From: an uncultured Candidatus Poseidoniales archaeon
GTDB lineage: Archaea > Thermoplasmatota > Poseidoniia > Poseidoniales > Poseidoniaceae
DNA length: 64,000 nt
Reading direction: 5' to 3'
NCBI GenBank assembly: GCA_902563095.1
Contig: CACEWA010000005.1
Location: 9,911 to 73,910, forward strand
Positions 1 through 40,647 of this stretch are shown in pieces. Below the pieces are notes generated by a model. That model was not told the DNA's origin. It saw nothing but the letters and a program-made list of their open reading frames with translations, and made no database searches. Position 1 is the stretch's first letter; each line of letters opens with the position of its first letter. The position numbers and the translations under genes are program-made.

Positions 1-3000
1 AAATCTGTAGTTTCGGCATCGGCTACTAACTCGAATACGTGGATTACATTGGTTGACAGAATAACAGAGTCTGCAACTCTTGGGTATCCTTCCAAGTGTG
101 CCTTGACCGTTACTGCTGGTCCTAGTCCTGCATTTGCATTATACGGTGCACAAACGGCTACGCCGACAGTATATGTCGTGCCGATTGGCCATAACCTCGG
201 ACTATGTGGATCTGAAGGATCTCTTGGGCCCGGGGCATTGGAGAAGTCCAATGTAACCGTCCAGTGATCTTGCCTCCATGTATTCATGTCAACTTCATCA
301 GGCTTAGCTTCAGGAGCGCCCGGGGTTGAAAATACGAGGTATCCTGCTTCGTAATTCTTGATTATGTTCAAGTCGTACTCTGCGCATGTTCCTGGCAGGA
401 TAATTTCACTTGTATCATATATCTCGAATACGATATTTCCAATCGAACGAATTGAAACATTTATCCATAATTCAAGGACGTCAAAGGTTCCCTTTTCTAG
501 CGATTTAATCGGTTCGCCTTCAGACCAACCTTTCACATAAACAACGAATGTTCCTGGGTCTTGGCTAGTAGGTACTGAAATTTCCAAATTCTTGGTCACA
601 GACTGCCCTGGGTCCAAAGCAACTTGCATTGGGAATGCCACTTGCCATCCGAACGGTAACAGCCATTCTTGTTGGCCTTCGAGGCTATTCGGGTCATAGA
701 AGGCAAATGTATCTTGTACGTTTCCAGTATTGGTAATTGTAATCGAAAAGATTGCTGTTTGTCCTTGCTCTACGTCTGCCATGCGGTGACTTGTATCCAA
801 GTCGATTCCATGAACTACATCCATCAGAGTTAATGTAAGACGTTCCGACCTAATTGCTGGGTCTTTCATTGAAATCGCGGTGACCATGATTTCGGCTACC
901 TGGTCTTCCTGTGCTTGATAAATCGATGGTGCTCTTACACGCAGGTACATACGAGACATTTCTCCGCCTTCGAGGAAGATTGGAGTGTCTGGGAAAATCG
1001 CTGTATGGTTGTTAGAGAAGTATAGATTTGCAGTCCAATTCTCCGGCATTCCTGATAGGTTCAGGTTGTAAGTATCTGCAACTAGATCCTTTGGCCCCGG
1101 AGTTGTATTGTTGATTGTCAGATTGTAGAGCGTCTGCTCTCCCGGCTCAATAACGTGATAGTAAGTCTCGCCTTCATCAAATTCAACATCGACTTGCCCT
1201 GTTAGTACGTGTGAATAACAGATTGTCCATGGTCCACCATTGCTCTCGCTTGAACACTTATTGGTATCAGACCAAGCAATATGCGCTCCGCTACCGAGAT
1301 CGTTTGCAAATGCAGGCGGCTGGCCTAGCGATGGTTTCGATAACTGATTTGGTCCAAGTTTGAACGATGACCAAGATGTTACTGCTGTCGAATTCCAAGG
1401 GTCTAGCGCTGTCTCGCCGGGTCCTGTATTCTCTGTAGAATTCAAGCGAGTGTAGCGAATTTCTTCTCCAGCGCTAGCATTTCCAAAGTCTAACCAAGCG
1501 ATGTGAATATTGTTTTGCGGGTCGGTCAGAATTGCAGGGTAAGCTGAATTTTGACTGCTGCCCTGTGGCATTTGTTGCCATCCCTCAACTTCAGAAATCG
1601 GGGTGTCTTCGATTCTCTTGATTGCATAAGTTGACAATCCGTTTGGAACGCCATCCCATTCTCCAGCACCTTGTAGCCTCAACTTGGTGTAGTAGATTTC
1701 GTATGGTACGTTCTTTTCGAATCCATAGTCACGTCCGTCCATCCAAGCAATGTGTGTATTGCCTTGCATATCAACGCCGATTGAAGGGTGGAAAGAGAAT
1801 GCGTCATCAATGGTTACTCTTGTGTCGTTTACTACGACTAAGTGGCCCTCACTTCCTCGTCCCATGTCTTCCGCATACCCGTTACCTAGGGTGGCGTGAC
1901 CTGGGTTTCCAGGAACCCATGATTGATCGTTTTCCATCTTTCCATATGGATCTAATACAGTCATGAAGATTTCACGAGAATTGTTTGTTGAGATGTAAAC
2001 CATTGCTTCTACAAGAAGTTGCATTTGGCTTGCACCGCCGGTTCCGGATGGGAATTCGTAGGTTTGTCCACCAGCATCAGTAGAACGTACTGAATTTCCT
2101 GGGCAGTTGCGTGTAGCGGTTGATACTACTCCATTTGGACACTGAGCCAAATCGCGCATGTGGGATTCAATGTTGTTAGCACCGCCATAGGATTGTCCGT
2201 ACAATCCTACAGGCACTACACCAGCATTTACACAATTGTCGTGTGCTTCGTTAATCGAAGTTGTATCGTCTGCTTGTTGAGATGGGTCTCCGTCCTTTGG
2301 TCCTTCATCAGACACTGGTAGAACGATCTTTGTTGCGTTCGGGTTCCAGCGGTGGTCGGAAGATGTTGGAGGGTTGCCTGGAACATTTCCAACTGTGTCT
2401 TTCCAAGATAGGCAAGCCCAGTTAGAACCTGGGCCCCAGTCTTCACCAGAGTATCCGGAATAGGTTGCACCGTTGTATACAGTTCCCGGTAGAGTTCTCA
2501 ATCCACCAGAGTCATCGTTGGCAATTAATCCAAGTGGTGTATTTCGCGGACCAGAATTCTTGTTGTGCTGAGCACAGTTGCCAGAACTTGCAGCGCCCGG
2601 CAAAGTGTTTCCTAATCCATAGATTGTTTCGTAAACTGTCATGTTTCCTTCTTCTAGCATTGGCTTAATTCCCTTGAAGAACCCACCAGATGCGAAATTT
2701 CCACCGTAAATTACTGTGCACACATCAGCCCACTCAGAATACATAGAACCTGATGTATCTACAACGAATACCAGTTCTACCTTTCCTCCACGGGTGTCGT
2801 CCCAAGCGATTTGAACGTAGTCATTAGCATCGACTACGATGTCTGGGTGCCCCTTGTGTCCAATGATTGGAGTTAGTAGAGTGTCGTCGAATAGGATGAT
2901 TGCGTTTTGGACACTGTAATCTGGTTGTAGCATCTTGTAGTAAATCTGTGGCTGCTGGAAGAACATGTCTAGAGAATCATAATTGTCTTGCCAAACGATG

Positions 3001-3527
3001 TGTATGTTTCCTTTAGAATCGACATCGATTGCTGGCCAGTCACGGTTATTGATGTGCTGTGCAACGATATAATCGTCGATTGCTGTGATTGTTCCGTCGT
3101 CAGAAACCGTGCCATCCATTGCGGTATTGAATGGATGTAATGCCGTATACATGATCTTGTGCTGTCCTGAATGATCAGCCCACACGATGTGAACACGGTC
3201 TTCGTCATCGATTACCATATCTGGATGGTATATCTTGTGAAGGCCGGCTCCAGTGACTTGTGTGGCATCAATCAATGTGTCTCCGCGTGGTGAAATCATT
3301 GAGTAATACAAGTGCTGATTGGACCGACTCCAGACAACGTGAACGTTGCCTTCAGAGTCTGATGCAACCGCTGACATGCGGTCGGATGAGCCTCCGCCAT
3401 CCACGACTTGAATCGCTTCAGTAATCACAACTTGCGTTGCTGCAGCGGGAGCTGCCATCATAATTCCAGATAGTGTTGAAAGCAGCATTATTGCTGCAAG
3501 GCTGATTGACTTCATTTTTTGTCCCAT
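1..3527 (-). CDS. Large secreted surface protein, partial (C-terminus lies beyond the window start). It has an N-terminal signal peptide, a VWA domain, repeated beta-propeller-like modules, and C-terminal Ig/adhesin-like regions.
   Basis: Uninterrupted minus-strand reading frame from the window edge to the ATG at 3525-3527; an alternative ATG lies at 3515. It is absent from the ORF track because no stop falls inside the window. The N-terminus MGQKMKSISLAAIMLLSTLSGIMMAAPAAA looks like a signal peptide. The motif ELVFVVDTSGSMYSEW is a classic VWA MIDAS (DxSxS) site. A module of the form (V/I)HI(V/A)W.D...(I/L)YY is repeated at least 8 times. Total length is over 1170 aa. Confidence 0.7.
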   Translation of the reverse strand, partial: MGQKMKSISLAAIMLLSTLSGIMMAAPAAATQVVITEAIQVVDGGGSSDRMSAVASDSEGNVHVVWSRSNQHLYYSMISPRGDTLIDATQVTGAGLHKIYHPDMVIDDEDRVHIVWADHSGQHKIMYTALHPFNTAMDGTVSDDGTITAIDDYIVAQHINNRDWPAIDVDSKGNIHIVWQDNYDSLDMFFQQPQIYYKMLQPDYSVQNAIILFDDTLLTPIIGHKGHPDIVVDANDYVQIAWDDTRGGKVELVFVVDTSGSMYSEWADVCTVIYGGNFASGGFFKGIKPMLEEGNMTVYETIYGLGNTLPGAASSGNCAQHNKNSGPRNTPLGLIANDDSGGLRTLPGTVYNGATYSGYSGEDWGPGSNWACLSWKDTVGNVPGNPPTSSDHRWNPNATKIVLPVSDEGPKDGDPSQQADDTTSINEAHDNCVNAGVVPVGLYGQSYGGANNIESHMRDLAQCPNGVVSTATRNCPGNSVRSTDAGGQTYEFPSGTGGASQMQLLVEAMVYISTNNSREIFMTVLDPYGKMENDQSWVPGNPGHATLGNGYAEDMGRGSEGHLVVVNDTRVTIDDAFSFHPSIGVDMQGNTHIAWMDGRDYGFEKNVPYEIYYTKLRLQGAGEWDGVPNGLSTYAIKRIEDTPISEVEGWQQMPQGSSQNSAYPAILTDPQNNIHIAWLDFGNASAGEEIRYTRLNSTENTGPGETALDPWNSTAVTSWSSFKLGPNQLSKPSLGQPPAFANDLGSGAHIAWSDTNKCSSESNGGPWTICYSHVLTGQVDVEFDEGETYYHVIEPGEQTLYNLTINNTTPGPKDLVADTYNLNLSGMPENWTANLYFSNNHTAIFPDTPIFLEGGEMSRMYLRVRAPSIYQAQEDQVAEIMVTAISMKDPAIRSERLTLTLMDVVHGIDLDTSHRMADVEQGQTAIFSITITNTGNVQDTFAFYDPNSLEGQQEWLLPFGWQVAFPMQVALDPGQSVTKNLEISVPTSQDPGTFVVYVKGWSEGEPIKSLEKGTFDVLELWINVSIRSIGNIVFEIYDTSEIILPGTCAEYDLNIIKNYEAGYLVFSTPGAPEAKPDEVDMNTWRQDHWTVTLDFSNAPGPRDPSDPHSPRLWPIGTTYTVGVAVCAPYNANAGLGPAVTVKAHLEGYPRVADSVILSTNVIHVFELVADAETTD

Positions 3528-3622: not shown

Positions 3623-4279
3623 TCAAAGCCAATCTGTAGGGTCGAAATCATCGCCAAATGACATGGATTCGTCTGCTTGGATTTCGGTGGGGTGAGGTGG
3701 AGAAGGCCTCCCTACTCTTTGTTTGGAATCTTTCTTGTTTTTCCAATCATCAACAGGGCCTGGCTTGCCCGAGCCTGCTCCGAATGTGTATTTGATCTCA
3801 TGAATTACTCCCAATTTTGCTAGCCATAAACTACGTAGGTTTTGCATCATTTCATTCTTGGTTAATCCGTCGAACCAAAGCGGTTCACTAACATTGAATG
3901 CCTGTAAAGGTCCTTTCCTTTCTTTTCCAGAATGGCCTAGGTGGATCCCCCAGTCAACTCCTGATGCGATTAATTGCATCCTGCATTCATGCATCCAAGT
4001 TTTCCACTCTTCTTCATCGGTTTTCATCAGGCCTTTCATCGACTCTTGCTGCCCTTCGTCGACCCTTGTCATAGATGAAATTGCAAGTAAATCTCTGCCT
4101 TTTGGTATAACGACTGCAAACATATGGCCGTTCTTTCCTTGAGGGTATTTGACAAGTAAATGCATCAGCGCCCTGGGGTCTTCTTGCTCCCGAATTTCGA
4201 TCCTCTCGCTAGTCAGCCATGAGCGGACCAACCTCTCTGCTTCTTCGGGCGACATATTCATTCCGAAACACTCCACCAA
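3623..4279 (-). CDS. hypothetical protein (218 aa)
   Basis: ORF with coding-like composition, last gene of a co-directional run (FAD protein, HIT, acyltransferase, this ORF). I recognise no motif. Confidence 0.45.
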   Translation of the reverse strand: MVECFGMNMSPEEAERLVRSWLTSERIEIREQEDPRALMHLLVKYPQGKNGHMFAVVIPKGRDLLAISSMTRVDEGQQESMKGLMKTDEEEWKTWMHECRMQLIASGVDWGIHLGHSGKERKGPLQAFNVSEPLWFDGLTKNEMMQNLRSLWLAKLGVIHEIKYTFGAGSGKPGPVDDWKNKKDSKQRVGRPSPPHPTEIQADESMSFGDDFDPTDWL

Positions 4280-4289
4280 CTTGAACCGT

Positions 4290-5828
4290 TCACTTTAGTA
4301 AGTCACGCAATTTTACAAGATCTGCACTTACTGCAGAATTGGTTTTCATTCTGCGTATCCACTTTGAGAAATCGGAAACAGCGTCCCAACCATTGGCAAA
4401 TGAAATCGCTGAAATCCACAACAACACAATTATTGATGTCCAGATTGCAATAATTGCTAGCCCCTCTTGCCATAATTCACTACCGAAAATGCCTACAATA
4501 TCATAGCCAATTTCTGAATTATAAATTACAGCTAAGATTGTGATTATTGTAGTTACTATTGGCCACCACAACATAGAGCCAAACATTCCAAAGAGCATGT
4601 GATAGGATGTTCTTGCATCTAGTCCCTCGTCTGTACGATCGCCCAAAATCCTACCAAGGGCGATTTGCCAACCCATTCCAATAATCAGTGTAGGCAAAAA
4701 CAGTACGAATGGAATGAATTTAATCAAGTCGATAATTGCTCCCGAAGGAGAGAAACTCCTGAGCCCATCGCTATTGGAATTTATGTCTCGGCCATCTAAT
4801 CCAGATGAGTCTAGTTTGTCGCCGATTCTTGTTGCGACTTCTTGGACTTCCTCAGAAGCAGGTTCGTTTTTGAGCCTGCGGATTTCTAACACTTCTTCTC
4901 GCCATGTCAGTTCTGGTTTTTTCTGAATGCGCCTTTGAACATGTGCGATGACTGAATCTCTGTGAACCTCGCTATATGTTTCTCGATTTGGAGTCAATGG
5001 TGCCAGCTTTTCTTGCAGGTGGTCTCTCAAACCAGTTACTATTTCAGCAGGAGGTTCCATCCAATCTCCAGCACCAACGGTTTCAATCAATTCGGAAGTT
5101 AATTCATTATGAGGTAATTCGATTGGATCTCCATATTCTACCCAACAGTCTGTTCTGAAAAGATGTCTAGTTCTGAAGTGCAGACCTATTGGAATCAGAA
5201 CAGGTACCTTGCCTCCATTTGCCTTAGCATGAGCAGCAGCGGCTAATACCGTTCGGAATGGCCCGGTTTTGAGGCGTATCAAATGGCTCTCTGAATGGCT
5301 AGTTCCTTCTGGGAAAAGCGCACAACCAAAACCATGTGAGATCCCGGTCGCCAAATTTAGCAAGGAGCGCCCGTTGAGGTAGCTCGCCTCTTCTTCTGAG
5401 CAGCCTCCACGTAATAACTCGGCTTTGCGAACCACTGGTTGAACTGCAAATTTTCTTGCCCAGAATCCAAGAATTGGTCTAGTAACTAGGTCGTGCCTTC
5501 CCCCCACAACGAATTTTTTTGGATGTGTTAAGAAAATTGCAATTGGGTCGATCAAACCATTTGTGTGCCATGCTGAACACATGCTCCCTCTATCGGTTGG
5601 TATTTTCTCCTCGCCCGATGATTCAAAGGTTCTGAATTGTGAAAACATTGTTCGCCTAAGCATGAAATATCCTAACTCGGTGAAAAAGGGTGAGCCAGGA
5701 TAATCTTTGTCAAATTTAGGCAGGGGAGTGTTTACCAATTTGTCGTATTTCATCCGAGTTGCTGATGCTGAAAGTTCGGGAAGTAAGTCACCATGGCTAT
5801 CTCTTGCCCCATCAAAACCCTTCTTCAT
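4290..5828 (-). CDS. glycerolipid acyltransferase family protein (PlsC/GPAT-like, bacterial type) with C-terminal transmembrane segment
   Basis: FPEGTSHSE matches acyltransferase motif III (FPEGTRS). The upstream H-x5-D (WHTNGLIDP) resembles motif I (HxxxxD). The C-terminal roughly 120 aa are hydrophobic with several predicted TM helices. There is a 4-nt start/stop overlap with the upstream HIT gene. Confidence 0.55.
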   Translation of the reverse strand: MKKGFDGARDSHGDLLPELSASATRMKYDKLVNTPLPKFDKDYPGSPFFTELGYFMLRRTMFSQFRTFESSGEEKIPTDRGSMCSAWHTNGLIDPIAIFLTHPKKFVVGGRHDLVTRPILGFWARKFAVQPVVRKAELLRGGCSEEEASYLNGRSLLNLATGISHGFGCALFPEGTSHSESHLIRLKTGPFRTVLAAAAHAKANGGKVPVLIPIGLHFRTRHLFRTDCWVEYGDPIELPHNELTSELIETVGAGDWMEPPAEIVTGLRDHLQEKLAPLTPNRETYSEVHRDSVIAHVQRRIQKKPELTWREEVLEIRRLKNEPASEEVQEVATRIGDKLDSSGLDGRDINSNSDGLRSFSPSGAIIDLIKFIPFVLFLPTLIIGMGWQIALGRILGDRTDEGLDARTSYHMLFGMFGSMLWWPIVTTIITILAVIYNSEIGYDIVGIFGSELWQEGLAIIAIWTSIIVLLWISAISFANGWDAVSDFSKWIRRMKTNSAVSADLVKLRDLLK

Positions 5829-6307
5829 TCAGATGCCTCCTTTATTGCGCTACAAAGATTCGCAAGAGCAGAAAAATCCGGGGGGTTCGAAGGATTGGCA
5901 TTTGGGAACATCGAAGGTAGAGCTCTGCCGCCATCTCCTTGTTTGCGTGGAATTACATGCACATGCACGTGAGGAATTTCCTGACCAGCCAATGGCCCGT
6001 CGTGGATTACAATTGTGAAATCTGATGTTTGGAAATATGTGGATAAAATCGACTGTGTTTGCTTAACTCCAGAGAATAGTTTCATCAAATCCTCGTCTGA
6101 TAAATCTGCTAATCGCTGAGAGGGGTTTTCTAAAACAACCAAGGTATGTCCTTCTGAACGAGGAAAAACATCGAGGAAAGATGACCATCCTTCGCCTCGA
6201 CAAATAAAGTTGCCAGGGACCTCTCCAAAGAGGATTTTCTCGAAAAGAGTGGTCTCTGCCATGAGCATTCGAAGCGCACGCCCCTCAAAGTTTTGAGGGT
6301 GTTTCAA
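5825..6307 (-). CDS. HIT (histidine triad) family hydrolase
   Basis: The C-terminal GQEIPHVHVHVIPR is the HxHxHxx histidine-triad signature. Size is 160 aa. The start may be the internal Met at MAETTLFEKIL. Confidence 0.75.
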   Translation of the reverse strand: MKHPQNFEGRALRMLMAETTLFEKILFGEVPGNFICRGEGWSSFLDVFPRSEGHTLVVLENPSQRLADLSDEDLMKLFSGVKQTQSILSTYFQTSDFTIVIHDGPLAGQEIPHVHVHVIPRKQGDGGRALPSMFPNANPSNPPDFSALANLCSAIKEASE

Positions 6308-7944
6308 GCATCAGGCGTTAAGACCCAAGTCCCTGAAACGCCTTTACGGATTGCTAGTGTGGAAAGATTTCCTTCTACATCCACTAGAGTGTGGTGTAAT
6401 TGTTCATCGTCTTGTTCAGAGAAATCTGTTCTTTGGTGTGTTCCGCGGCTTTCGGTTCTAGACAGCGCGCTTCTTACCGACGCTATAGCCAATCTGACTC
6501 CAGCCTTCAGGCGTAATGCCTCCAGTAAATTGGTATTGAATAATCTACTAGAATCATCAAGGTGCAACTTTCCTGCTGAATCAGCAAGCGATTCTAGTGA
6601 ATCCAATGCGGATTCTAGTCCTTCTGCTCCTCGAGTGAGTCCCATGCTCGATTGCATAATATCTCCAAGTTTTGCAAATAATGGTCCTGTTCTCTGAACA
6701 GGCCCTTCTTCAGCAGCAGCCATGTCGAAATCGAGATCAGCTTCAGCTGCCCCGAGTGCTGTTTCAAGAGCCGCCCTTCCGGTATGTGAGGCTTTAGCAG
6801 CATGTGCTGCTGCATGTTCTCCCGCTGCTGCTCCTCCTGCCATAGCGTCAAGTAGCCTGTTGCCTGCAATCAATCCTGCACCATGTAATCCTGAGCACGC
6901 AGAGTCTCCTGCTGCATATAATCCAGTAAACCAGCGCGACCAGCGTCCAGTAATGGCGCGGCCATGTTCATCTGTGGCTATTCCACCAATTGTAGTTGCA
7001 ACCCTTGGGTGAATAGAAATTGTTTGCTTTTTCATATCGATGCCCAATCTTTGGCTGACTAATTCGAAAGTTTGTGCCCACCAAACCGATGATTCGCCCA
7101 TATTTCGAGCATCCAATACTGCATCAGAATTAGCCCCAATTGCCTCGGCTAGGGCGGTTGTATCAGAAGTCAAATCTACATCGATTGGAGTTCCGTTAGA
7201 ATGGTGTAATGTAGCGCCATCGGCCAGAAGGCCAATTGGTAAAACGACATTCGTTCCACTAACTGCTAGGGGCGCCCATGCAATGAATTCAAGATCTCTA
7301 GCCGCTAAACCTGCATTCATTGCTAAGTCTAAGCCAAGGCCTACATTGCTGCCAGTCCAGATTCCTTCGTATCCTCCATCTGCAATTATTACTGATTTTG
7401 ATTGAAGAGAATTTAGTGAACCAGTAGACATGTCCAATGCGATTACTCCGTGTACTTGCTCACCAGAATGAACCAGTTGTAGTGGGACTTGCTCTCCTCT
7501 GCGGACGACGCCGTGCTTCATGCACTGTTCTTCGAGTACTTGTTGTGTGTTGCGTATCATCGAATCTCCTGCGCCTGCTAAACGAGGCAAAGAATGCCCT
7601 GATGCTTTACGAACCATTGGAATTCCATCTGCATCTCTGCGGAAAATTACCCCCCAACGCTCCAATAGATCTACCTGGCGAATTGCTTGTGAAACTCTGT
7701 TTGAAACGATATCTTGGTCGCAGAGGAAGCCCCCTGCGCGGATTGTGTCATCTCTGTGTGATTTGGTTGTGCTCTCTTTCAAAGGCGCAGCTATACCGTC
7801 AATGGCTGAATTATTTCCGACGCCGAGACTATCAGCAGACATCATCAAAGTGGATGCTCCTGCCTTTGCTGCGCTTGCTGATGCTCTGAGAGCGGCTGGA
7901 CCGTCTCCGATTACGATGATGTCCCATGCTTCCACGTACTCCAC
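6304..7944 (-). CDS. FAD-dependent oxidoreductase, succinate dehydrogenase/fumarate reductase flavoprotein or L-aspartate oxidase family
   Basis: N-terminal dinucleotide-binding motif WDIIVIGDGPAAL. Length of 546 aa and overall fold signatures match the SdhA/FrdA/NadB family (H..LP..AGAG.., RGTHQRTDF near the C-terminus). Confidence 0.65.
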   Translation of the reverse strand: MEYVEAWDIIVIGDGPAALRASASAAKAGASTLMMSADSLGVGNNSAIDGIAAPLKESTTKSHRDDTIRAGGFLCDQDIVSNRVSQAIRQVDLLERWGVIFRRDADGIPMVRKASGHSLPRLAGAGDSMIRNTQQVLEEQCMKHGVVRRGEQVPLQLVHSGEQVHGVIALDMSTGSLNSLQSKSVIIADGGYEGIWTGSNVGLGLDLAMNAGLAARDLEFIAWAPLAVSGTNVVLPIGLLADGATLHHSNGTPIDVDLTSDTTALAEAIGANSDAVLDARNMGESSVWWAQTFELVSQRLGIDMKKQTISIHPRVATTIGGIATDEHGRAITGRWSRWFTGLYAAGDSACSGLHGAGLIAGNRLLDAMAGGAAAGEHAAAHAAKASHTGRAALETALGAAEADLDFDMAAAEEGPVQRTGPLFAKLGDIMQSSMGLTRGAEGLESALDSLESLADSAGKLHLDDSSRLFNTNLLEALRLKAGVRLAIASVRSALSRTESRGTHQRTDFSEQDDEQLHHTLVDVEGNLSTLAIRKGVSGTWVLTPDA

Positions 7945-7997
7945 CTCCGGTGGAGTGAGCCAAGAGTGGGTATGTCATAAGCAACGCGCCTAAATTA

Positions 7998-9569
7998 TCA
8001 TGATGTAGGGGTTGTAAATTCGACAAGAGGTAGAGGGCTTTCACCCTTTGAGCGTGCCTTCAACATACGCTTCAAACGTTGTCGTGAGAGATTGCTTTCG
8101 CCGACTAGTACGTTTGTTTTGATTATTCTTGAACCTAAAATATTACCATCGTCATCACGAAGAATAACTTGGACATTTCTGCGCCCTCTCACATTTTCAT
8201 TCCATGCAACGCCAATCCACAAAATGACTCCTTTCTCGAGATATTTTGGCATCCAATCTAGTGCGTCTTCGACAAGAGGATCTGTGATTTTTACCGCTCC
8301 TTCGGGACCAGGGCATGAGCGCAACTCGAAACGATGTTCTTGGTTTTCTGGCATACCTCCTGGAACAATTACTTCCACACGCAAATGGCGATCGTGTAGT
8401 GTTTGATTGTTTAACGCGATGAAAAGGTGCCCAGTGCGGTTACTACAACGGTCGGCTAATGCCATATCCATACGCCATGGATTTTGGGTGATAGAAGCGG
8501 TTCCTGCTAGTAAATCGTTCTGTAACCTATCTAGTAAATCAAATACCTCGACTTGCCAAGCCCTTGCATGGGCTATCAACCTCTGAATCTTAACCCAATT
8601 GAATGGCGCTTTATCATCAAATAGTAATTCTTCTATTGCCATGGGCTTGATGAATTCCTTTAATTCACTCATCGTTTCTTCATCGTTCAAATCGCCTCTA
8701 CTATTGAGGTGTAGCAAATAGAGTAGCCTCTCTCTAGCTTGTTTTTTGTCTACACCAGGTAGTAACGATTTGGGTAGTTTACTTTCCCATGTATTCCAAA
8801 GTAAAGAGTGGTCTGGATCAAGATGTGCATAAATTAAATCCCCTAAAATCGTATCTAATTTCATCGGGTGATGGGTTGGAGAATGCATTACTAAATACGG
8901 CAACTCATCGCCCAATTTCCTAATTGAGTCTGTAGTAAAAATAGCATGAAACGAGAGAGCAAGGCTCGATGTTAATGTAATTAGTAAAACTAGATTGTAA
9001 GCCAATCCATTTGGTTCTAACCCCGCTGCAAGAATTAACAATAATATCGATACTGCGGCTAGAATTGCTGCAGTAGCATTATGCAACCGTACATCGTTTA
9101 AACCGGCTTTGATTCTATCCATTCCGGGTTCGGCCATCATATCTCTACGAACGCCTTTTTCGATCGCTTCCTCTTTCCATAAAGAAGAACGTAGCATCAA
9201 AGCAGTCATTCCTCTCTCTGCGGCTATGAATGAAGGCGCAATTGAAATTGCAAGCAAAGGTATCCAAAGTAAAATCATCAATGTTGGTTTAGCAAGTGGG
9301 TGATATGGGGCTACAACCCCTGCAAGTGCAGTTAATGCCATCAATAATCCAACTACTCTTCTAGCCATCAATAGAGATGGGCTGCAGGCTAATCTCCCAT
9401 ATTTGAGTCGGTGCTTCTCAGCTAAGTTGTAATCTGATAATGATATTGAAAGAGAATCCTCGCTACGGTCGAAGTCCTTACTGTAAGGGTTCGGAAGAGT
9501 GGATTCTTTGCCAGGAATCACTTTTTTCAGTGAAGTGTCCTCAGGCATGTTACTAGGCACAATACTCAA
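7998..9569 (-). CDS. hypothetical membrane protein (523 aa); N-terminal TM bundle plus C-terminal soluble domain
   Basis: Several hydrophobic helices between about residues 70 and 210. The C-terminal roughly 300 aa are hydrophilic. I recognise no motif. Confidence 0.45.
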   Translation of the reverse strand: MSIVPSNMPEDTSLKKVIPGKESTLPNPYSKDFDRSEDSLSISLSDYNLAEKHRLKYGRLACSPSLLMARRVVGLLMALTALAGVVAPYHPLAKPTLMILLWIPLLAISIAPSFIAAERGMTALMLRSSLWKEEAIEKGVRRDMMAEPGMDRIKAGLNDVRLHNATAAILAAVSILLLILAAGLEPNGLAYNLVLLITLTSSLALSFHAIFTTDSIRKLGDELPYLVMHSPTHHPMKLDTILGDLIYAHLDPDHSLLWNTWESKLPKSLLPGVDKKQARERLLYLLHLNSRGDLNDEETMSELKEFIKPMAIEELLFDDKAPFNWVKIQRLIAHARAWQVEVFDLLDRLQNDLLAGTASITQNPWRMDMALADRCSNRTGHLFIALNNQTLHDRHLRVEVIVPGGMPENQEHRFELRSCPGPEGAVKITDPLVEDALDWMPKYLEKGVILWIGVAWNENVRGRRNVQVILRDDDGNILGSRIIKTNVLVGESNLSRQRLKRMLKARSKGESPLPLVEFTTPTS

Positions 9570-23095: not shown

Positions 23096-23207
23096 ATTTG
23101 GTGGCCGTGTTAGTTGCTTTTGATGATGGCGGTACAGTTAGTATTTCACGGTGGATTCTTGCTGATTTAGCACTACCCTCTTGTGCTTGGTGTGTTGTGT
23201 AGTTGAT

Positions 23208-24530
23208 ATGGCGAGCGAAAGGTTCTGGGACGAACCTATTGAAACCGGGGCGGTTCCTGATACTGGTACTGATTTCGATTGCATCGTTGTTGGCGGGGGG
23301 CCTGGTGGAGCTGCGGCTGCATCTTACCTCGCTATGGAAGGAAAAAATGTGTTGCTTATCGAAAAGGGGGTTTGGCCGCGCGACAAAATTTGTGGCGATG
23401 CGGTCGGTGGAAAATCGCTAGGCCATGTTAATGCTCTTGGGGTCAAGGCCACGTTAGAGTCGACGCCTCACTTCAGAGTCACCGGTATTGTTTTTTCATC
23501 TCCTAATGGAAGTGATGTTACTGTACCTTTACCTGAGGAAGATGTTGAAAAGATGGAGGCTGGCTATTCTCTTCCTAGACAACAATTCGATTGGTTACTA
23601 TTCAAAAGAGCCACTGAGTTGGTTTTAGAAAACGGTGGGTCTGTAATTCAAGGCACCATGGTTACCGAGGTATTTGATGATGACGGTAAGATAACTGGTG
23701 TTGAAGTTGGGATCGGTGGCAAAAGAGGTGAGAAGAGAGAATACTCCGCGCCTTGGACTATCGGCGCTGGCGGATATCAATGCCCTGTTGCTAGAAAGAT
23801 TGTCAAAGAGATGGCAAAGGAAGAGTTGGTCGACAGGATGCATTATTGTGGAGGATACCGCGAATATTGGTCTGGTGTCAAAGGCTGTGAAGGAGATGCT
23901 GGTAACATCGAAATCCACTTTGTTGATACGGTTATTCCTGGATATTTCTGGCTATTCCCTCTCGGAGGGGGGAAAGTAAATGTTGGAATCGGCATGGTAA
24001 TGGGGCTTCTAGATAAACAAAAGAAGAAACTCAAAACTATGCAAGCAGATGTTATTGCTAATCATCCATCATTCAAGGATAGGTTCGCTGAGGCTGAGCT
24101 GATTAAAGGCACTGGGAAGGGGTGGCAACTACCGTTTGGTAGCCCGAGAAAGGGTGAAAAAAATCAGCCCCGCCGTGCTTATGCACCTGGTGCCTTGCTA
24201 ATAGGAGATGCTGCGAGTTTGGTTGACCCGTTTTCTGGAGAAGGAGTTGGCAACGCATTGGTTAGTGGAGAGATGGCTGCAAGACACGTGATAGAAAATA
24301 AGGGTGGGCCCGAGTATCAAGAAGAGTTGTGGGCTGCATTAGGTCCTGAGTTAACAAACTCCTTCAAAATGCAAAAAATGAGCCGCCGAAAATGGTTGCT
24401 AAATTGGTTCGTAGGTAAAGCGAGCAGAAAGCCTGTTATTCAGGAGATGATGACGGAGATGATTGCGAGTAAAGAAGCGCAAGAAAACCTACACTCAAAG
24501 TGGTTCTTGGTGAAAACTCTACTATTCTGA
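23208..24530 (+). CDS. geranylgeranyl reductase family flavoprotein (digeranylgeranylglycerophospholipid reductase-like)
   Basis: FDCIVVGGGPGGAAAASYLA Rossmann motif, plus KICGDAVGG (the conserved GGR Cys motif). Size is about 440 aa. The track start at 23181 is a TTG; the ATG is at 23208. Confidence 0.75.
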   Translation: MASERFWDEPIETGAVPDTGTDFDCIVVGGGPGGAAAASYLAMEGKNVLLIEKGVWPRDKICGDAVGGKSLGHVNALGVKATLESTPHFRVTGIVFSSPNGSDVTVPLPEEDVEKMEAGYSLPRQQFDWLLFKRATELVLENGGSVIQGTMVTEVFDDDGKITGVEVGIGGKRGEKREYSAPWTIGAGGYQCPVARKIVKEMAKEELVDRMHYCGGYREYWSGVKGCEGDAGNIEIHFVDTVIPGYFWLFPLGGGKVNVGIGMVMGLLDKQKKKLKTMQADVIANHPSFKDRFAEAELIKGTGKGWQLPFGSPRKGEKNQPRRAYAPGALLIGDAASLVDPFSGEGVGNALVSGEMAARHVIENKGGPEYQEELWAALGPELTNSFKMQKMSRRKWLLNWFVGKASRKPVIQEMMTEMIASKEAQENLHSKWFLVKTLLF

Positions 24531-24539
24531 TGTGATATA

Positions 24540-25316
24540 ATGGATACGAAATTAGACGGTGTCAAAGCGGTGTTTTTAGATCTTGATGGCACAATTTATC
24601 TCGGAGGAAACCTAATTCCTGGCGCTCTAGAATTCCTTTCGCGTTGTAAAGAACAGGGTGTGCAACGTTATTTCTTGTCAAATAATTCATCTAGGTCTGT
24701 CGAACAATATGTTGCTAAACTACACAAAATGAACATTCCTTGTGAGGCAGATGATGTCTTGCTTTCTACTCATGACCTGCTTTCTTGGTTACAAAAAGAA
24801 GGTGTTAGCAAAACATGGGCTATTGCGACCGAAGGTATGTGTAAAATGATGGAAGATGTTGGAATCTCTACGAGAGATAAAGATCCAGAGTATGTGGTCC
24901 TGGGTTATGATACTGAAATTGATTATGAGAAAATCTCTACTGCTTCCATACACATGCACAAAGGCGTACCTTTGGTTGCAAGTCATCCCGACATGGTTTG
25001 TCCTTCACCAGACGGAGGTCTGCCCGATGTTGGTGCTTATCTTGCAATGCTAAAAGTAACAACTGGGAAAGACCCTGTTCACATTACTGGAAAGCCAAAC
25101 CCGGGAATGATAATGCACAAAATAGAGGAGTTGGGCCTTGCCCCTTCGGAATGTGCAATGGTAGGAGACCGGTTGTATACGGATATGGAGATGGCAATAC
25201 AGGCTGGGTGTGTTTCTGTACTTGTTCTATCTGGAGAAGCTACAATGAAAGATTTACAAGAGTCTGAAAAAGCAGTTAGTGTAGTGGTCGATTCTGTTGA
25301 TGCACTACTGAGGTGA
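24540..25316 (+). CDS. HAD superfamily hydrolase, subfamily IIA (NagD/PGPase-like phosphatase)
   Basis: Motif I VFLDLDGTIY. Motif II S. Motifs III/IV K...GDRLYTD. The 258-aa length is typical of HAD-IIA. Confidence 0.75.
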   Translation: MDTKLDGVKAVFLDLDGTIYLGGNLIPGALEFLSRCKEQGVQRYFLSNNSSRSVEQYVAKLHKMNIPCEADDVLLSTHDLLSWLQKEGVSKTWAIATEGMCKMMEDVGISTRDKDPEYVVLGYDTEIDYEKISTASIHMHKGVPLVASHPDMVCPSPDGGLPDVGAYLAMLKVTTGKDPVHITGKPNPGMIMHKIEELGLAPSECAMVGDRLYTDMEMAIQAGCVSVLVLSGEATMKDLQESEKAVSVVVDSVDALLR

Positions 25317-25320
25317 GAAA

Positions 25321-26142
25321 TTGGGCAGGCTTGCAGAGTTTTTCGCAAGAAGGGTAAAGTTCGAACCTGAGGGACATGTGGTTTCCGGCAGGCTTGCTGA
25401 GTTTAGATTAATGAAATTGACAAGGGCCGTGGCTGGCAAGGCTTTGGTTCTAGAAGGAATTAGAATACCAGACCCAGAGGAAGGTGGCCGAAGAGAGATC
25501 GATATGGTCATAGCAACAAAGAATGAGATCCTATTCGTTGAACAGAAGCACTGGTCGGGCTCTTTTACCATAACTAGTGAAGGTAGATTTTTCCAACGTA
25601 GAAAGAACGGTGGAACCCTGATGCACAAGGATATTGTTGCATGGACATGCAGAAAGGGTGACATATTATGCGATTTGCATGAATCTCGCACAGACAATTC
25701 CCCTCCACCAAGCAGAGTGGTTTTGGTGTTCTCCAACAAGAATCTGGAATGGGATCCTTTACCAGAAGAAGTTCCTGCTGAAGCTTATGATGAAATGGGC
25801 TTCATCAACATGGTTGAAAAAATGGATAAGAGTGTTCCCGAGGATTCACTAAAGGAGACGTTGCTAGGTTTTGGGACATGGGATACCATTCACCTGAATG
25901 GAGGAAAAACCCTACATGGCGATATTCTCGAATATCCTTTTGAAAGAGTTGATTGTTCTATCGGGCACACAGGTATTTTTGGATTAATTACTGGTCCCAA
26001 GAGTAATTTGTCAACAGGCCAGGTTGTAGTTGATCAATCTGGACCGTTGGTAGCGGTTGTCGGAGAAGATGGTTCTAGAATAATTCCCTTCGCGCATATA
26101 TCAAAAATAGAATTTAGCAACCCTCGGGCTGAGTGGGGTTGA
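25321..26142 (+). CDS. NERD (nuclease-related) domain protein with uncharacterised C-terminal domain
   Basis: Residues about 20-95 (GRLAEFRL...REIDMVIATKNEILFVEQKHWSGSF) match the NERD pattern GE..v...L ... EIDhvv....gifvIE.KnwsG. Confidence 0.5.
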   Translation: MGRLAEFFARRVKFEPEGHVVSGRLAEFRLMKLTRAVAGKALVLEGIRIPDPEEGGRREIDMVIATKNEILFVEQKHWSGSFTITSEGRFFQRRKNGGTLMHKDIVAWTCRKGDILCDLHESRTDNSPPPSRVVLVFSNKNLEWDPLPEEVPAEAYDEMGFINMVEKMDKSVPEDSLKETLLGFGTWDTIHLNGGKTLHGDILEYPFERVDCSIGHTGIFGLITGPKSNLSTGQVVVDQSGPLVAVVGEDGSRIIPFAHISKIEFSNPRAEWG

Positions 26143-38554: not shown

Positions 38555-39847
38555 ATGGTAGTTGTGCGATTGGAGTTAATGACGTTAGGCGCAGATACCC
38601 CAGGTGGCATCCGTCGTATGACTGAAACGACTGGTGATGAGCGAGCAGCGCTCGAAGGAATGTTACGCGCATATCCCGTTGACCAACTCGTTGAAGAGGT
38701 CCTTGTCGCATGGCAAGAATTGGCTGATAGAAACGAAGATTTGGTTACTTCAAAACAGAGATTGAGAGTTTTAGAACTCGACCTTGCGGAGCGTAAAGAC
38801 GAGGTTGCTCCAGAAGTGGCTCAATTGAAGGCTGCAGAGAATGACCTTGAAGAATCAGGAGCAAGAATTGTTCACTTGGAAAGATTGCTCGAAGATACAC
38901 GAAAAGAGTTGGCAGAAAATAGTTCCAGTATTTCTGTAGAAGAAAGGGAGGCTCTTGAAAACGAAGCCTCTCAATTAAGAGAATTAACTACTCAACAAGA
39001 CGATGTTATCGCTGAAATGGAAGGCCGTATGGGACAAATGGTCGAAGCTTTGGAGCGGGCGGCTGATGCTGGTCTAACCAGTGTTACTGCAGATGAGGTC
39101 CGCGCTTTGAAAGCCCAATCAGATTCACTGTCTAGCGACTTGGAGGCTGAGAAGGCCGCCAATAATGCACTTGAAGAAGAACGTCAAAGATTGAGAGATA
39201 TTGCTGATAGATTGCGTGGATTGTTAGATGCTCGCGACACCCGTCTTGCGGAATTAGAAGAACAATTAGAACGAGTGATGCAAGGCCCAAGATCGGTTTC
39301 TGCAGAACATGATTATCTGGTTGAGCAAATTGAAGAATTAAAGCGTAGATTGCTTGAAAGAAATCGCGAATATGAATCTCTAAGAAGAAGAGAGAGAAGA
39401 TTGCACAATGATGTATTCGAAAGGGATGAGAGAATCCAGCAAATGTCCCTAACTATTGGTGATTTGGAATCTGCACTAACAGACAGAACCTCAGAGGTTC
39501 GTGAATTAGAATCTCAAAGAGATACTGCGGTAAACCAACTCGATGGAGTAAAGCGCTCTGAAAGAACTCGTGAAGTTGTAGGACGTGTGTTTGCTGATTC
39601 CTTATCTCTTGTACGTAGTCATGATGAAAGGGAATTACGCAAGGAGATTTATTCCAATTCGCCTGATGTAGAGAGAACTATTTCAGCGCCAAATGCTGAT
39701 GATATGCAAACTTTAGCAGATGGTGGAACTGTCGACCTTGATACTGCATTAGAAGTTATTGAGAAAGGAATGGATGTTCCGAAAGAGGCACGTCCAAATT
39801 CCCCTGGTGGAACAGGAGACCCTGTAATCTACGAAGACGAGGATTGA
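38555..39847 (+). CDS. acidic coiled-coil protein (430 aa), hypothetical
   Basis: Almost entirely heptad-like E/L/R/A/Q-rich sequence, with no enzymatic motifs. It starts 50 bp after the actin-fold gene on the same strand. Confidence 0.55.
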   Translation: MVVVRLELMTLGADTPGGIRRMTETTGDERAALEGMLRAYPVDQLVEEVLVAWQELADRNEDLVTSKQRLRVLELDLAERKDEVAPEVAQLKAAENDLEESGARIVHLERLLEDTRKELAENSSSISVEEREALENEASQLRELTTQQDDVIAEMEGRMGQMVEALERAADAGLTSVTADEVRALKAQSDSLSSDLEAEKAANNALEEERQRLRDIADRLRGLLDARDTRLAELEEQLERVMQGPRSVSAEHDYLVEQIEELKRRLLERNREYESLRRRERRLHNDVFERDERIQQMSLTIGDLESALTDRTSEVRELESQRDTAVNQLDGVKRSERTREVVGRVFADSLSLVRSHDERELRKEIYSNSPDVERTISAPNADDMQTLADGGTVDLDTALEVIEKGMDVPKEARPNSPGGTGDPVIYEDED

Positions 39848-40647
39848 ATTCCTTCAACTATTTCGTTAATTCTTTGCCGAATTTCATCCATATTCGCAGC
39901 GTCTTCTGTGAGAGTTCCAGTAACAATCCAGTTTGCTCCTGCATTTGCAGCTTTAGCTGCTTGCTCCCCTGTCCTAATTCCGCCACCTACGATTAAACAC
40001 AAATCTTCGACTTGATTTGCGGCTTCAATGCATTTTGGTTCTACTTGTTTTGATGCTCCACTACCTGCTTCGAGATAGAGGATTTTAAATCCGAACATTT
40101 TCGCTGTAATCGCATATGAATGAACTAATTCGTGTTGGTTTGCTTCGATCAATTCGGCTTGACCAACTTCTCCAACTTTACCCCCTGGAGAAAATACAAG
40201 ATATCCTGTTGGTAGTGCTTCGACACCAAATTTCTGAAGATATGGCGCTCCACGTAGTTGTTCACCAACTAAAAATTTCCTAATTTGTGAATTCATCAGC
40301 ATCATGAATGTTATTCCGTCTGCAGCTGGTGAAAGTGCATGAGCGCCTCCAGGGAATAGAACTACTGGTATTTTCCACATCTCTTCATCTGAATTTGGGT
40401 CTTGACTTGCAGCAAAAATTTGCAGTTCAAGGGCTTCTTGGATTGATTTACATGTTTGATGGACTACTTCGTCTGGCGTATCTGTTGATCCCCCAACGAA
40501 TATCATCTTGGAGCCTGCTTCAATTGCTGCAATTGCCCTTCTAGTAGCAATTTCTGCACTCTGTTTTCCTGGATCGATAAGTGTGATGTGCCTACAACCG
40601 CGACTTTGGTCAAGAACGTAATTTAACAAGCCTTCATCCGGTATCAT
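39829..40647 (-). CDS. geranylgeranylglyceryl phosphate synthase (PcrB/GGGPS family)
   Basis: TLIDPGKQ, FVGGSTD, YLEAGSGA, and LIVGGGIRTGEQA are the GGGPS/PcrB signature motifs of the TIM barrel. Confidence 0.8.
   Translation of the reverse strand: MIPDEGLLNYVLDQSRGCRHITLIDPGKQSAEIATRRAIAAIEAGSKMIFVGGSTDTPDEVVHQTCKSIQEALELQIFAASQDPNSDEEMWKIPVVLFPGGAHALSPAADGITFMMLMNSQIRKFLVGEQLRGAPYLQKFGVEALPTGYLVFSPGGKVGEVGQAELIEANQHELVHSYAITAKMFGFKILYLEAGSGASKQVEPKCIEAANQVEDLCLIVGGGIRTGEQAAKAANAGANWIVTGTLTEDAANMDEIRQRINEIVEGIQSSSS

Follow-up and report, generated by a model that had tools for sequence, protein, structure and literature searches.

The 512-aa product of a minus-strand gene in the window, the 64,000-nucleotide stretch of Candidatus Poseidoniales (Marine Group II, MGII) DNA analysed here, is on balance best read as a membrane-anchored O-acyltransferase of the GPAT/AGPAT superfamily. 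Within it, the protein would fall in the H-x5-D branch, of which Sct1 and Gpt2, the glycerol-3-phosphate (G3P)/DHAP acyltransferases of yeast, are typical. The enzyme probably acylates glycerol phosphate with fatty acids. New here is its resemblance to the first-step enzyme of yeast and bacteria, and not to PlsC. A first-pass annotation of this DNA had described three minus-strand ORFs, a glycerolipid-type acyltransferase among them, and these were found at 4290-5828 (512 aa), 5825-6307 and 6304-7944. The acyltransferase gene and its features are:

4290..5828, minus strand: acyltransferase gene, ORF of 512 aa with a Pfam PF01553 match
5547..5567, minus strand: motif I, H88-T-N-G-L-I-D94 (H-x5-D), predicted catalytic His/Asp pair, invariant in 65/65
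5301..5315, minus strand: motif III, F172-P-E-G-T176, then S177-H178, invariant in 65/65
4611..4646, minus strand: acidic loop L-G-D-x-T-D-E-G-x-D-A-R, residues 395-406, between membrane helices 1 and 2, conserved in 64-65/65
4389..4745, minus strand: C-terminal membrane region with three hydrophobic helices (hydropathy, AF2, hhalign)

The protein matches PF01553 (Acyltransferase) with 30.9 bits (E 2.7e-7; Pfam cut-off 23 bits), and 619 homologues were recovered. A lineage-specific N-terminal extension (residues 1-45) precedes the PF01553 catalytic domain (residues 60-235, approximately); a helical linker (245-345) follows, and the C-terminal part holds three membrane helices. Hydropathy places these helices at about 365-390, 412-436 and 455-478, the AF2 model at 361-397, 403-435 and 452-511, bearing out the C-terminal membrane anchor proposed earlier. 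The AF2 model is confident (pLDDT 88.6, pTM 0.85). Its only significant PDB neighbours in Foldseek are PlsC (5kym), human GPAT1 (8e4y) and plastid GPATs (8ia1, 1iuq), Thermotoga maritima PlsC being the best match (E 3.8e-5, TM 0.57 on target). The predicted fold is that of a glycerol-phosphate acyltransferase.

Motif III (FPEGT) lies at residues 172-176 as first noticed, and what had been called a motif I-like H-x5-D is a true H88-x5-D94 motif. All four motifs are present and invariant across 65 Poseidoniales species representatives; in the window protein they lie in CSAWHTNGLIDPIA, AVQPVVRKAE, LFPEGTSHSES and VLIPIGLHFR. Residues H88, N90, D94, R134, F172-P-E-G, S177, H178, P213 and G215 are identical in 65/65 of these and remain invariant or at least 90% conserved once distant bacterial relatives are added; in the 50-sequence alignment A2, which includes such relatives, H88, N90 and D94 do not vary. 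Non-conservation of motif I had been set beforehand as a refuting test, and since the motif is invariant in both alignments, this test does not refute the assignment. In the acidic loop, D397, D400, E401, G402, D404 and R406 are conserved in 64-65 of the 65 Poseidoniales orthologues, D404 to at least 90% even with bacterial relatives in the alignment.

Concerning the branch, sequence comparison assigns the protein to the H-x5-D, Sct1/Gpt2-like part of the GPAT/AGPAT (PF01553) superfamily. H-x5-D has been described as a peculiarity of Sct1 and Gpt2 (PMC7613133), and the yeast motifs read GAPHANQFIDPA, GGIPVPRIQ, FPEGGSHDR and VAVVPCGLHY (PMC6353168 Table 1). With the Poseidoniales profile A1 as query, hhalign gave a probability of 99.9 (E 3e-36, 344 columns) against a set of proteins named GPAT/DHAPAT by JGI plus fungal proteins, 99.5 against one bacterial protein of this type, and 98.8 against one fungal protein (330 columns, as far as the membrane helices). 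The corresponding values were 40 for E. coli PlsC (31 columns), 1.8 for E. coli PlsB and 1.0 for E. coli Aas. The entire architecture, from the catalytic domain through the helical linker to the membrane helices, is common to the window protein and the Sct1/Gpt2-like bacterial and fungal proteins.

Canonical PlsC was rejected: the PlsC domain model TIGR00530 scores 19.8 bits, far under its cut-off of 103 bits, motif I has H-x5-D spacing and not H-x4-D, and the hhalign match to E. coli PlsC is confined to the 31 columns given above. The role given in public annotation, a lysophosphatidate (1-acyl-G3P) acyltransferase performing the second acylation as a functional PlsC equivalent, draws on the Foldseek match to T. 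maritima PlsC and on the 'PlsC homologs' named in the MGII literature (PMC6962369, PMC6431249). We regard it as unlikely, given the same TIGR00530 score and motif spacing, a probability of 40 set against 99.5-99.9 for Sct1/Gpt2-like proteins, and an architecture unlike PlsC, with 512 aa and C-terminal membrane helices. Moreover, the annotations are assigned automatically and disagree with each other, both names occurring within a single cluster of relatives. The published PlsC tree is based on 57 positions and poorly resolved (PMC6431249).

As a Sct1/Gpt2-like enzyme, the protein would catalyse the acyl-CoA- or acyl-ACP-dependent acylation of G3P or DHAP, which would be the first ester-forming step. 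His88 and Asp94 would act as a charge relay activating a glycerol hydroxyl, and the acceptor phosphate would be held by Arg134 (motif II) and Glu174/Gly175/Ser177 (motif III). A role in the first step fits, because no PlsB or PlsX was found in archaea by published survey (PMC6431249). We found no characterised enzyme of the prokaryotic H-x5-D branch in the literature; the substrate assignment is therefore transferred from the yeast enzymes, to which identity is about 25%. A glycerolipid-type acyltransferase, as originally proposed, is supported by sequence, motifs and predicted fold.

The gene is present at a fixed locus in all 67 Poseidoniales species representatives recovered, and one orthologue (L021) sits in the original MG-II genome CM001443.1. 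Among the recovered Poseidoniales genomes it is a native and universal gene. This distribution, together with the invariant catalytic residues, fits a core function. It argues against lysophospholipid re-acylation or salvage, or a non-membrane acceptor, within a lipid-degrading heterotrophy instead of de novo membrane synthesis, as does the absence of a transporter or lipase neighbour. We consider such a role very unlikely, even though the relative P0232, a fusion of an LplT-like lysophospholipid transporter to an H-x5-D acyltransferase domain, suggests that at least some members of the branch re-acylate lysolipids. Poseidoniales genomes also carry genes for fatty-acid degradation, and lipid consumption has been attributed to the group (PMC6461757); Coleman et al. 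questioned whether the PlsC and PlsY homologues of archaea serve in membrane-lipid synthesis (PMC6431249).

The closest relatives beyond the order are bacterial (Myxococcota, Acidobacteriota, Bacteroidota), and the Poseidoniales ancestor probably acquired the gene from Bacteria. The earlier description as a bacterial-type ester-lipid enzyme agrees with these nearest relatives; the protein is not of the PlsC type, however, and falls in the Sct1/Gpt2-like branch. No other lipid genes were found in the bacterial or archaeal neighbourhoods of the acyltransferase. In the window, the gene is surrounded by the following features:

5825..6268, minus strand: HIT-family protein, probably 147 aa from ATG at 6268 (Pfam HIT 75.5 bits)
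6282..6299, minus strand: hairpin CCCUCAA-aacu-UUGAGGG in the 35-nt flavoprotein-HIT spacer (fold -14 kcal/mol, z-score -1.9)
6304..7935, minus strand: FrdA/SdhA/NadB-like flavoprotein, 543 aa (homologue length, alignment to E. coli FrdA)
3623..4261, minus strand: DUF2299 protein, 28 nt downstream of the acyltransferase (Pfam 57.5 bits)
7998..9569, minus strand: conserved 523-aa membrane protein, upstream in the collinear block (conserved position)

The HIT protein carries HVHVHVI, its histidine triad is invariant in 65/65, and by sequence it matches Fhit and other HIT-family proteins best in the PDB. The stop codon of its gene and the acyltransferase start share an ATGA at 5825-5828, with AAGGAGG 8 nt upstream. 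This 4-nt overlap is real and the junction tight across the order (median gap -0.5 nt, maximum 27 nt in 64 loci; overlap in 32/64). The second 4-nt overlap reported, between HIT and flavoprotein, turned out to be an artefact of longest-ORF calling. It requires a HIT start at TTG 6307, which is just the earliest start codon that the ORF allows, whereas HIT genes called in relatives encode 137-145 aa and start 5-60 nt past the flavoprotein stop (estimated median gap 30 nt, 59 loci). A start at ATG 6268 leaves a gap of 35 nt, equal to that in the two closest genomes; the spacer hairpin is seen in closest relatives only. The acyltransferase is probably co-transcribed with the upstream HIT gene and translationally coupled at least sometimes. 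Of the translationally coupled operon first proposed, HIT and acyltransferase are positioned for coupling, but the flavoprotein lies about 35 nt upstream.

The flavoprotein itself has FAD_binding_2 and Succ_DH_flav_C domains (Pfam), all Pfam and NCBIfam scores being under the family cut-offs. Its start is more likely the GTG at 7935 than the ORF start at 7944, because GGAGG lies upstream and most homologues have 542-543 aa. Aligned to E. coli FrdA, with counts over 58 orthologues, its dicarboxylate active-site residues are replaced. The FAD domain of the earlier call is present, but the FrdA/SdhA/NadB catalytic and substrate-binding (fumarate/succinate-site) residues checked are lost.

It is doubtful that the genes for flavoprotein, HIT, acyltransferase and DUF2299 work together as an operon serving one lipid-related pathway. 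The genes share one strand with gaps of 35, -4 and 28 nt, DUF2299 follows the acyltransferase in nearly all orthologous loci, and the HIT junction and HIT catalytic residues are conserved as described. Even the most divergent clades retain HIT, acyltransferase and DUF2299 in this order, despite a gene inserted between flavoprotein and HIT. However, the block from RFC (replication factor C) to a giant surface protein is collinear throughout the Poseidoniales genomes examined, and it includes the 523-aa membrane protein, for which Pfam, NCBIfam and PDB gave no match. Synteny across the order therefore does not single out these genes, and as evidence for a common function it is weak. Short gaps and 4-nt overlaps, under the same longest-ORF calling, also join unrelated window genes, e.g. 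epimerase and OMP decarboxylase. HIT, flavoprotein or DUF2299 stood beside the homologue in 0/13 bacterial loci. Both DUF2299 and HIT occur widely where the acyltransferase is absent; the DUF2299 structure 3cxj, matched with E 6e-11, is an 'uncharacterized protein' with no assigned function; and the flavoprotein lacks the ancestral active site.

Two archaeal ether-lipid genes had also been reported for the window, and both match above cut-off:

39829..40647, minus strand: GGGPS, archaeal ether-lipid enzyme (PcrB 149 bits; TIGR01769 191 bits, cut-off 161.6)
23181..24530, plus strand: geranylgeranyl reductase family protein (GGR_cat 31.8 bits; TIGR02032 166 bits, cut-off 158.8)

The source lineage is Ca. 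Poseidoniales, for which mixed or bacterial-like membranes have indeed been proposed. The mixed-membrane idea is not new: it was proposed for MGII by Villanueva 2017 (as cited in PMC6962369, PMC7852524), including acyltransferase genes beside archaeal ether-lipid genes, and by Rinke 2019 (PMC6461757). G1P dehydrogenase is reported in no Poseidoniales MAG, G3P dehydrogenase in nearly all genera (PMC6461757). Environmental lipid work has not identified the MGII lipids (PMC6962369). The presence of GGGPS and a geranylgeranyl-reductase family gene would suit an archaeal isoprenoid acceptor, e.g. the free hydroxyl of geranylgeranylglyceryl phosphate, leading to the chimeric lipid on G3P (one ether isoprenoid, one ester fatty acid) that Villanueva et al. 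proposed, according to PMC6962369; the clade-specific N-terminal extension and invariant acidic loop could reflect such a new acceptor. We judge this quite unlikely, as these lipid genes lie 18-35 kb away, unlinked to the acyltransferase gene, the phosphate-binding motifs match those found in ordinary glycerol-phosphate acyltransferases, and no such lipid is reported from MGII-rich waters (PMC6962369).

Compared with the MGII 'PlsC homologs' (Villanueva 2017, Coleman 2019, Rinke 2019), the window gene has in common the lineage and the general claim of an ester-forming acyltransferase with GGGPS and DGGGPS, G3P dehydrogenase and no G1P dehydrogenase. The 'PlsC' of Villanueva 2017 may be the window gene or a paralogue of it; an assignment to the Sct1/Gpt2 branch was not found in the accessible literature on these homologues. 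T. maritima PlsC shares superfamily, core fold and motif III FPEGT, but has H-x4-D, about 240 aa and N-terminal membrane association, where the window protein has H-x5-D, 512 aa and C-terminal helices.

With yeast Sct1 (Gat2) and Gpt2 (Gat1), G3P/DHAP acyltransferases of KEGG type K13507, the window protein shares H-x5-D within H-x-N-x-x-x-D-P (PMC7613133, PMC6353168), motif III FPEGxSH[D/S], motif IV [I/V]PxG[L/M]x[Y/F] (window form [IV]PxGLH[FY]) and membrane helices C-terminal to the catalytic motifs. Identity is about 25-27%. The yeast proteins are longer (about 750 aa), have six reported membrane segments instead of three, and carry an insertion between motifs II and III (about 120 residues, against about 38 in the window protein and its bacterial relatives); the N-terminal extension and LGDxTDEGxDAR loop are specific to the Poseidoniales clade. 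For the Sct1/Gpt2-like relatives (JGI GPAT/DHAPAT, fungal), profile homology runs over the linker and first membrane helices. The bacterial H-x5-D acyltransferases (about 450-500 aa; Myxococcota, Acidobacteriota, Bacteroidota, others) have no N-terminal extension, a different membrane-loop motif and no HIT, flavoprotein or DUF2299 neighbours. Their names vary from one database entry to another. They agree with the window protein in domain order, are similar in length, share the motifs HPN[GA]L[VI]DP, FPEG[TIV]SH and VP[VA]GL[HY]Y, and are 28-42% identical to it over the catalytic domain.

The acyltransferase gene was delimited by ORF calling and by a match of its product to Pfam PF01553 (Acyltransferase) over residues 69-208, with 30.9 bits against a gathering threshold of 23 and an E value of 2.7e-7. 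Its features, in the residue numbering of the protein itself, are as follows:

4290-5828, minus strand: acyltransferase ORF, 512 aa
H88-TNGLI-D94: motif I, a genuine H-x5-D with five residues between His and Asp
residues 172-176: motif III, FPEGT
residues ~365-390, 412-436 and 455-478: three C-terminal hydrophobic helices

The first-pass annotation, made from the sequence alone, had named the FPEGT motif III, a motif I-like H-x5-D and a C-terminal membrane anchor, and all of them are present. It had also considered that motif I might turn out unconserved in an alignment. H88, N90, D94, R134, F172-P-E-G, S177, H178, P213 and G215 are invariant in 65 of 65 Poseidoniales species representatives, and the H-x5-D therefore stands. 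Upon addition of distant bacterial relatives, in an alignment of 50 sequences, the catalytic motifs are invariant or at least 90% conserved, with H88, D94 and F172-G175 still invariant. An acidic loop, LGDxTDEGxDAR (residues 395-406; 4611-4646, minus strand), lies between membrane helices 1 and 2. Its residues D397, D400, E401, G402, D404 and R406 are conserved in 64-65 of the 65 species representatives, and for D404 conservation stays at 90% or more when the bacterial relatives are included. Given this conservation, the C-terminal region does more than passively anchor the protein.

An AlphaFold (AF2) model built from the 50-sequence alignment reached a pLDDT of 88.6 and a pTM of 0.85. The only Foldseek matches in the PDB near or below E 1e-3 were PlsC (5kym), human GPAT1 (8e4y) and the plastid GPATs 8ia1 and 1iuq. 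These relatives were recovered by fold comparison alone; PDB sequence searches with the acyltransferase or the family profile gave no relevant match, the profile none at E <= 10. The N-terminal extension (residues 1-45; 5694-5828, minus strand) is clade-specific and absent from bacterial relatives. It is modelled with low confidence (pLDDT 54-68) and contains the invariant residues D6, G7, D10, G13, P17, L19, S20, S22, M26, P35, P37, P44, G45 and S46. It could be an interaction motif.

Close homologues of the acyltransferase all come from MAGs labelled 'Euryarchaeota', Poseidoniales or Poseidoniaceae. With one genome scanned per species, 67 orthologous loci were recovered, among them that of the original MG-II genome (CM001443.1), and the nearest to the window are UBA10 and an ALOHA MGIIa-K1 MAG (86%). 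This distribution identifies the lineage, which had been left unverified at first, as Marine Group II (MGII). The single locus not assigned to Poseidoniales lies on a contig of an alphaproteobacterial MAG, Yoonia sp. (L032, CAXRJJ010000073.1). This contig carries the full Poseidoniales block from the RFC gene to the giant protein gene and is probably mis-binned. Contamination or recent transfer was rejected as an explanation for the gene, since it occupies a fixed archaeal locus beside RFC in all species representatives.

Concerning the gene neighbourhood, the acyltransferase gene is surrounded by the following features:

3-3527, minus strand: giant secreted protein, at least 1175 aa in the window, cut by the window start
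5825-6307, minus strand: longest HIT ORF, probable gene 5825-6268
6304-7944, minus strand: longest flavoprotein ORF, probable gene 6304-7935
7998-9569, minus strand: conserved membrane protein of 523 aa, beta-rich in its C-terminal part

The gene order is the same in all Poseidoniales loci that are long enough to show it: RFC small subunit, a protein of ~520 aa from no known family, flavoprotein, HIT, acyltransferase, DUF2299 and giant secreted protein. The window follows this order too, and its start cuts through the giant gene. In the most divergent clades an FG-GAP gene stands between flavoprotein and HIT, or just HIT, acyltransferase and DUF2299 are seen. The genes for flavoprotein, HIT, acyltransferase and DUF2299 lie on the same strand with short gaps and conserved adjacency. 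Two 4-nt overlaps had been proposed to couple the flavoprotein, HIT and acyltransferase genes in one operon, a proposal which is half right. At 5825-5828 the stop codon of HIT does overlap the start of the acyltransferase gene, in ATGA, with AAGGAGG 8 nt upstream. Among 64 loci the gap at this junction has a median of -0.5 nt and a maximum of 27 nt, with overlap in 32, as calculated from heuristic start positions. This arrangement accords with a common transcript for HIT and acyltransferase and with translation that is often coupled. The overlap between flavoprotein and HIT did not hold, as it needs the TTG at 6307, merely the first possible HIT start. The HIT proteins of relatives are called at 137-145 aa and start after a gap from the flavoprotein, for which heuristic starts give a median of 30 nt (59 loci); in the window the ATG at 6268 leaves a gap of 35 nt, the same as in the two closest genomes. 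The flavoprotein itself probably starts with the GTG at 7935, which is preceded by GGAGG; most homologues have a length of 542-543 aa. The 35-nt spacer contains a hairpin at 6282-6299 (minus strand) with a stem of 7 bp, CCCUCAA / UUGAGGG. It was rejected as a conserved regulatory element, given its z-score of -1.9 and its presence only in the closest relatives (L012-L016, L018 and L075).

The HIT protein has a HIT domain (75.5 bits), and the three histidines of its HVHVHVI motif are all present in 65 of 65 orthologues; its closest structures are Fhit and other HIT-family proteins. The flavoprotein contains FAD_binding_2 (121.5 bits) and Succ_DH_flav_C (89.2 bits) domains. Its best alignment is to E. 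coli FrdA, and the FAD-binding glycines are retained. Among 58 orthologues Glu245, Arg248, His355 and Arg390 (E. coli FrdA numbering) are each found in none, the covalent-FAD His44 likewise in none and His232 in 15. All NCBIfam scores are under the family cut-offs. Given the missing active-site residues and these scores, it is not a fumarate reductase, succinate dehydrogenase or L-aspartate oxidase (FrdA/SdhA/NadB) of the conventional kind, and from its sequence the flavoprotein looks like a paralogue that has taken on another function or is not catalytic. The sole match of the DUF2299 protein is the uncharacterised structure 3cxj, and no mention of DUF2299 was found in the literature searched. 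The 523-aa membrane protein, which in Poseidoniaceae is always found upstream of the flavoprotein, has no match in Pfam, NCBIfam or PDB; its single-sequence structure model has a pLDDT of 39.9. The giant proteins at the same position in relatives are CLIPPER_2/CARDB-like and ~1660-1700 aa long.

Synteny is weak evidence for a shared function of these genes. The conserved block includes clearly unrelated genes, the association is found in 0 of 13 bacterial loci, and longest-ORF calling also joins unrelated window genes by 4-nt overlaps (e.g. epimerase and OMP decarboxylase). The scanned neighbourhoods of bacterial relatives contain no lipid genes. Found there are def, fmt, a PduO-type adenosyltransferase, a multihaem/TPR protein and an unrelated FAD_binding_2 protein, and such housekeeping surroundings give no guilt by association. 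In six loci from Myxococcota and Deltaproteobacteria (L079-L081, L084, L085 and L090) the unrelated FAD_binding_2 gene lies ~2 kb downstream of the acyltransferase homologue, with def, fmt and the PduO-type adenosyltransferase gene intervening on the other strand. This proximity is probably a coincidence.

An exhaustive HMM search yielded 2700 relatives of the acyltransferase. Those beyond the Poseidoniales clade are ~450-500 aa long and carry the motifs HPN[GA]L[VI]DP, FPEG[TIV]SH and VP[VA]GL[HY]Y, and some are labelled by JGI as 'glycerol-3-phosphate O-acyltransferase/dihydroxyacetone phosphate acyltransferase'. The best genomic matches outside Poseidoniales are from Myxococcota, Polyangiales, Acidobacteriota, Bacteroidota and similar bacteria, with 28-42% identity in the catalytic domain, in agreement with a bacterial origin of the archaeal homologues of ester-lipid acyltransferases, as proposed in the literature (PMC6431249).

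We examined the branch of the family with A1, a profile of Poseidoniales acyltransferases. A canonical PlsC/AGPAT identity was rejected: the PlsC domain model TIGR00530 scores 19.8 bits on the acyltransferase against a cut-off of 102.95, motif I is H-x5-D in place of the H-x4-D of PlsC, and hhalign of A1 to E. coli PlsC gives a probability of 40 over 31 columns around motif III. Profile similarity to a PlsB-type GPAT was likewise not found, the probability with E. coli PlsB being 1.8; with E. coli Aas it is 1.0. Against a set of GPAT/DHAPAT-labelled and fungal proteins, whose labels are automatic JGI ones and which is without any yeast sequence, A1 aligned with a probability of 99.9 and E 3e-36 over 344 columns, extending through the linker into the membrane helices. 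One bacterial GPAT/DHAPAT-labelled member gave a probability of 99.5 and one fungal protein 98.8. The profile comparison confirms the Sct1/Gpt2-like assignment: the gene encodes an acyltransferase that is conserved, anchored in the membrane and part of the Sct1/Gpt2-like branch with H-x5-D.

Regarding its role, we lean, with modest confidence, towards a Sct1/Gpt2-like enzyme predicted to acylate G3P or DHAP. By analogy with the family, His88 and Asp94 would activate the glycerol hydroxyl, and Arg134 and the FPEGxS segment would hold the acceptor phosphate. In Poseidoniales G1P dehydrogenase is absent and G3P dehydrogenase present (PMC6461757). Three alternatives share the remaining probability. 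One is a second acylation as performed by PlsC, to which the profile match is confined to the surroundings of motif III. Another is the acylation of an isoprenoid glyceryl phosphate, leading to a chimeric lipid. Genes for GGGPS and for a geranylgeranyl-reductase family protein (GGR) are both present in the window, as had been noticed at first, and score above their NCBIfam cut-offs (TIGR01769 and TIGR02032, respectively). The third is lysolipid salvage, at which a relative found in the representatives search hints: in P0232 (1104 aa) an H-x5-D acyltransferase domain is fused to a lysophospholipid transporter of the MFS that resembles LplT, which suggests that part of the H-x5-D branch re-acylates lysophospholipids. 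As further observations around the ether-lipid genes, the geranylgeranyl-reductase gene is followed by genes for a HAD-IIA phosphatase and a NERD-domain protein with gaps of 9 and 4 nt (23181-26142, plus strand). A gap of 1 nt separates GGGPS from a same-strand gene (40649-41290, minus strand) whose product of 213 aa has a dinucleotide-binding motif at its N-terminus and gives no more than weak matches to the N-termini of FAD/NAD oxidoreductases, HpnE among them.

Neither PlsB nor PlsX turned up in published surveys of Archaea (PMC6431249). If the acyltransferase is a GPAT, as in the G3P/DHAP reading, this lineage would no longer be open to the objection that Archaea have no enzyme for the first step. 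A more far-reaching claim is that Poseidoniales possess, in an acyl-CoA-dependent Sct1/Gpt2-type G3P (or DHAP) acyltransferase, the missing first step of ester-phospholipid synthesis, overlooked by surveys for PlsB and PlsX/PlsY only. This claim we hold tentatively and would sooner expect to be wrong than right. In its fuller version the coupled HIT, DUF2299 and the flavoprotein with remodelled active site would form a lineage-specific accessory module. Marine Thermoplasmatota also have a second clade of Sct1/Gpt2-like paralogues (P0220, P0223 and P0292), which is more bacterial-like, with ~30% identity to bacterial relatives as compared to 23-29% to the window protein. Its sources are 'Euryarchaeota archaeon' MAGs, and P0292 corresponds to positions 7001-8602 of locus L009. 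No second copy or paralogue was found within the window. The clade is a candidate partner for two-step acylation; if the far-reaching claim is true, G3P dehydrogenase and such a paralogue would complete a bacterial-type or hybrid lipid route in an abundant marine archaeon.

MGII membrane lipids are a long-standing question, which bears on the 'lipid divide' and on how marine archaeal lipid proxies such as TEX86 are interpreted. The first-pass annotation related the acyltransferase to a mixed membrane in this lineage, an idea that had already been proposed and is not new. PlsC-like acyltransferases beside archaeal lipid genes in MGII, with the mixed-membrane hypothesis, are ascribed to Villanueva 2017 in PMC6962369 and PMC7852524; the same theme is found in PMC6461757 and PMC6431249 and was repeated in 2026 (PMC13037920). 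The combination of ether-lipid genes with ester-forming acyltransferase homologues and no G1P dehydrogenase has been known since 2016-2019, and our finding thus adds no new concept. The databases contain entries with 99% identity to the window protein, and remoter orthologues are already annotated as acyltransferase. The Sct1/Gpt2-branch assignment, the order-wide residue and junction statistics and the degenerate flavoprotein were not found in the accessible literature, which did not comprise Villanueva 2017 itself. The gene is real, biologically meaningful and a good experimental target; the finding itself repeats known work. What is gained is practical: the gene, invariant throughout the order, clearly lends itself to direct testing, and its placement in the family shifts such a test to G3P/DHAP as acceptor, acyl-CoA as donor and complementation of plsB or gat1/gat2 instead of plsC.

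Yeast Sct1 and Gpt2 are described as peculiar in having H-x5-D where H-x4-D is usual (PMC7613133). The yeast enzymes carry an insertion of ~120 aa between motifs II and III (PMC7613133), whereas the window protein, as its bacterial relatives, has ~38 residues from R134 to F172 and is devoid of this insertion. The yeast motifs I-IV read GAPHANQFIDPA, GGIPVPRIQ, FPEGGSHDR and VAVVPCGLHY (PMC6353168), those of the window protein CSAWHTNGLIDPIA, AVQPVVRKAE, LFPEGTSHSES and VLIPIGLHFR. Both share H-x-N-x-x-x-D-P in motif I (AWHTNGLIDP in the window, APHANQF[IV]DP in yeast), FPEGxSH[DS] in motif III (LFPEGTSHS and FPEGGSHDR) and [IV]PxG[LM]x[YF] in motif IV (IPIGLHF and VPCG[LM][HN]Y).
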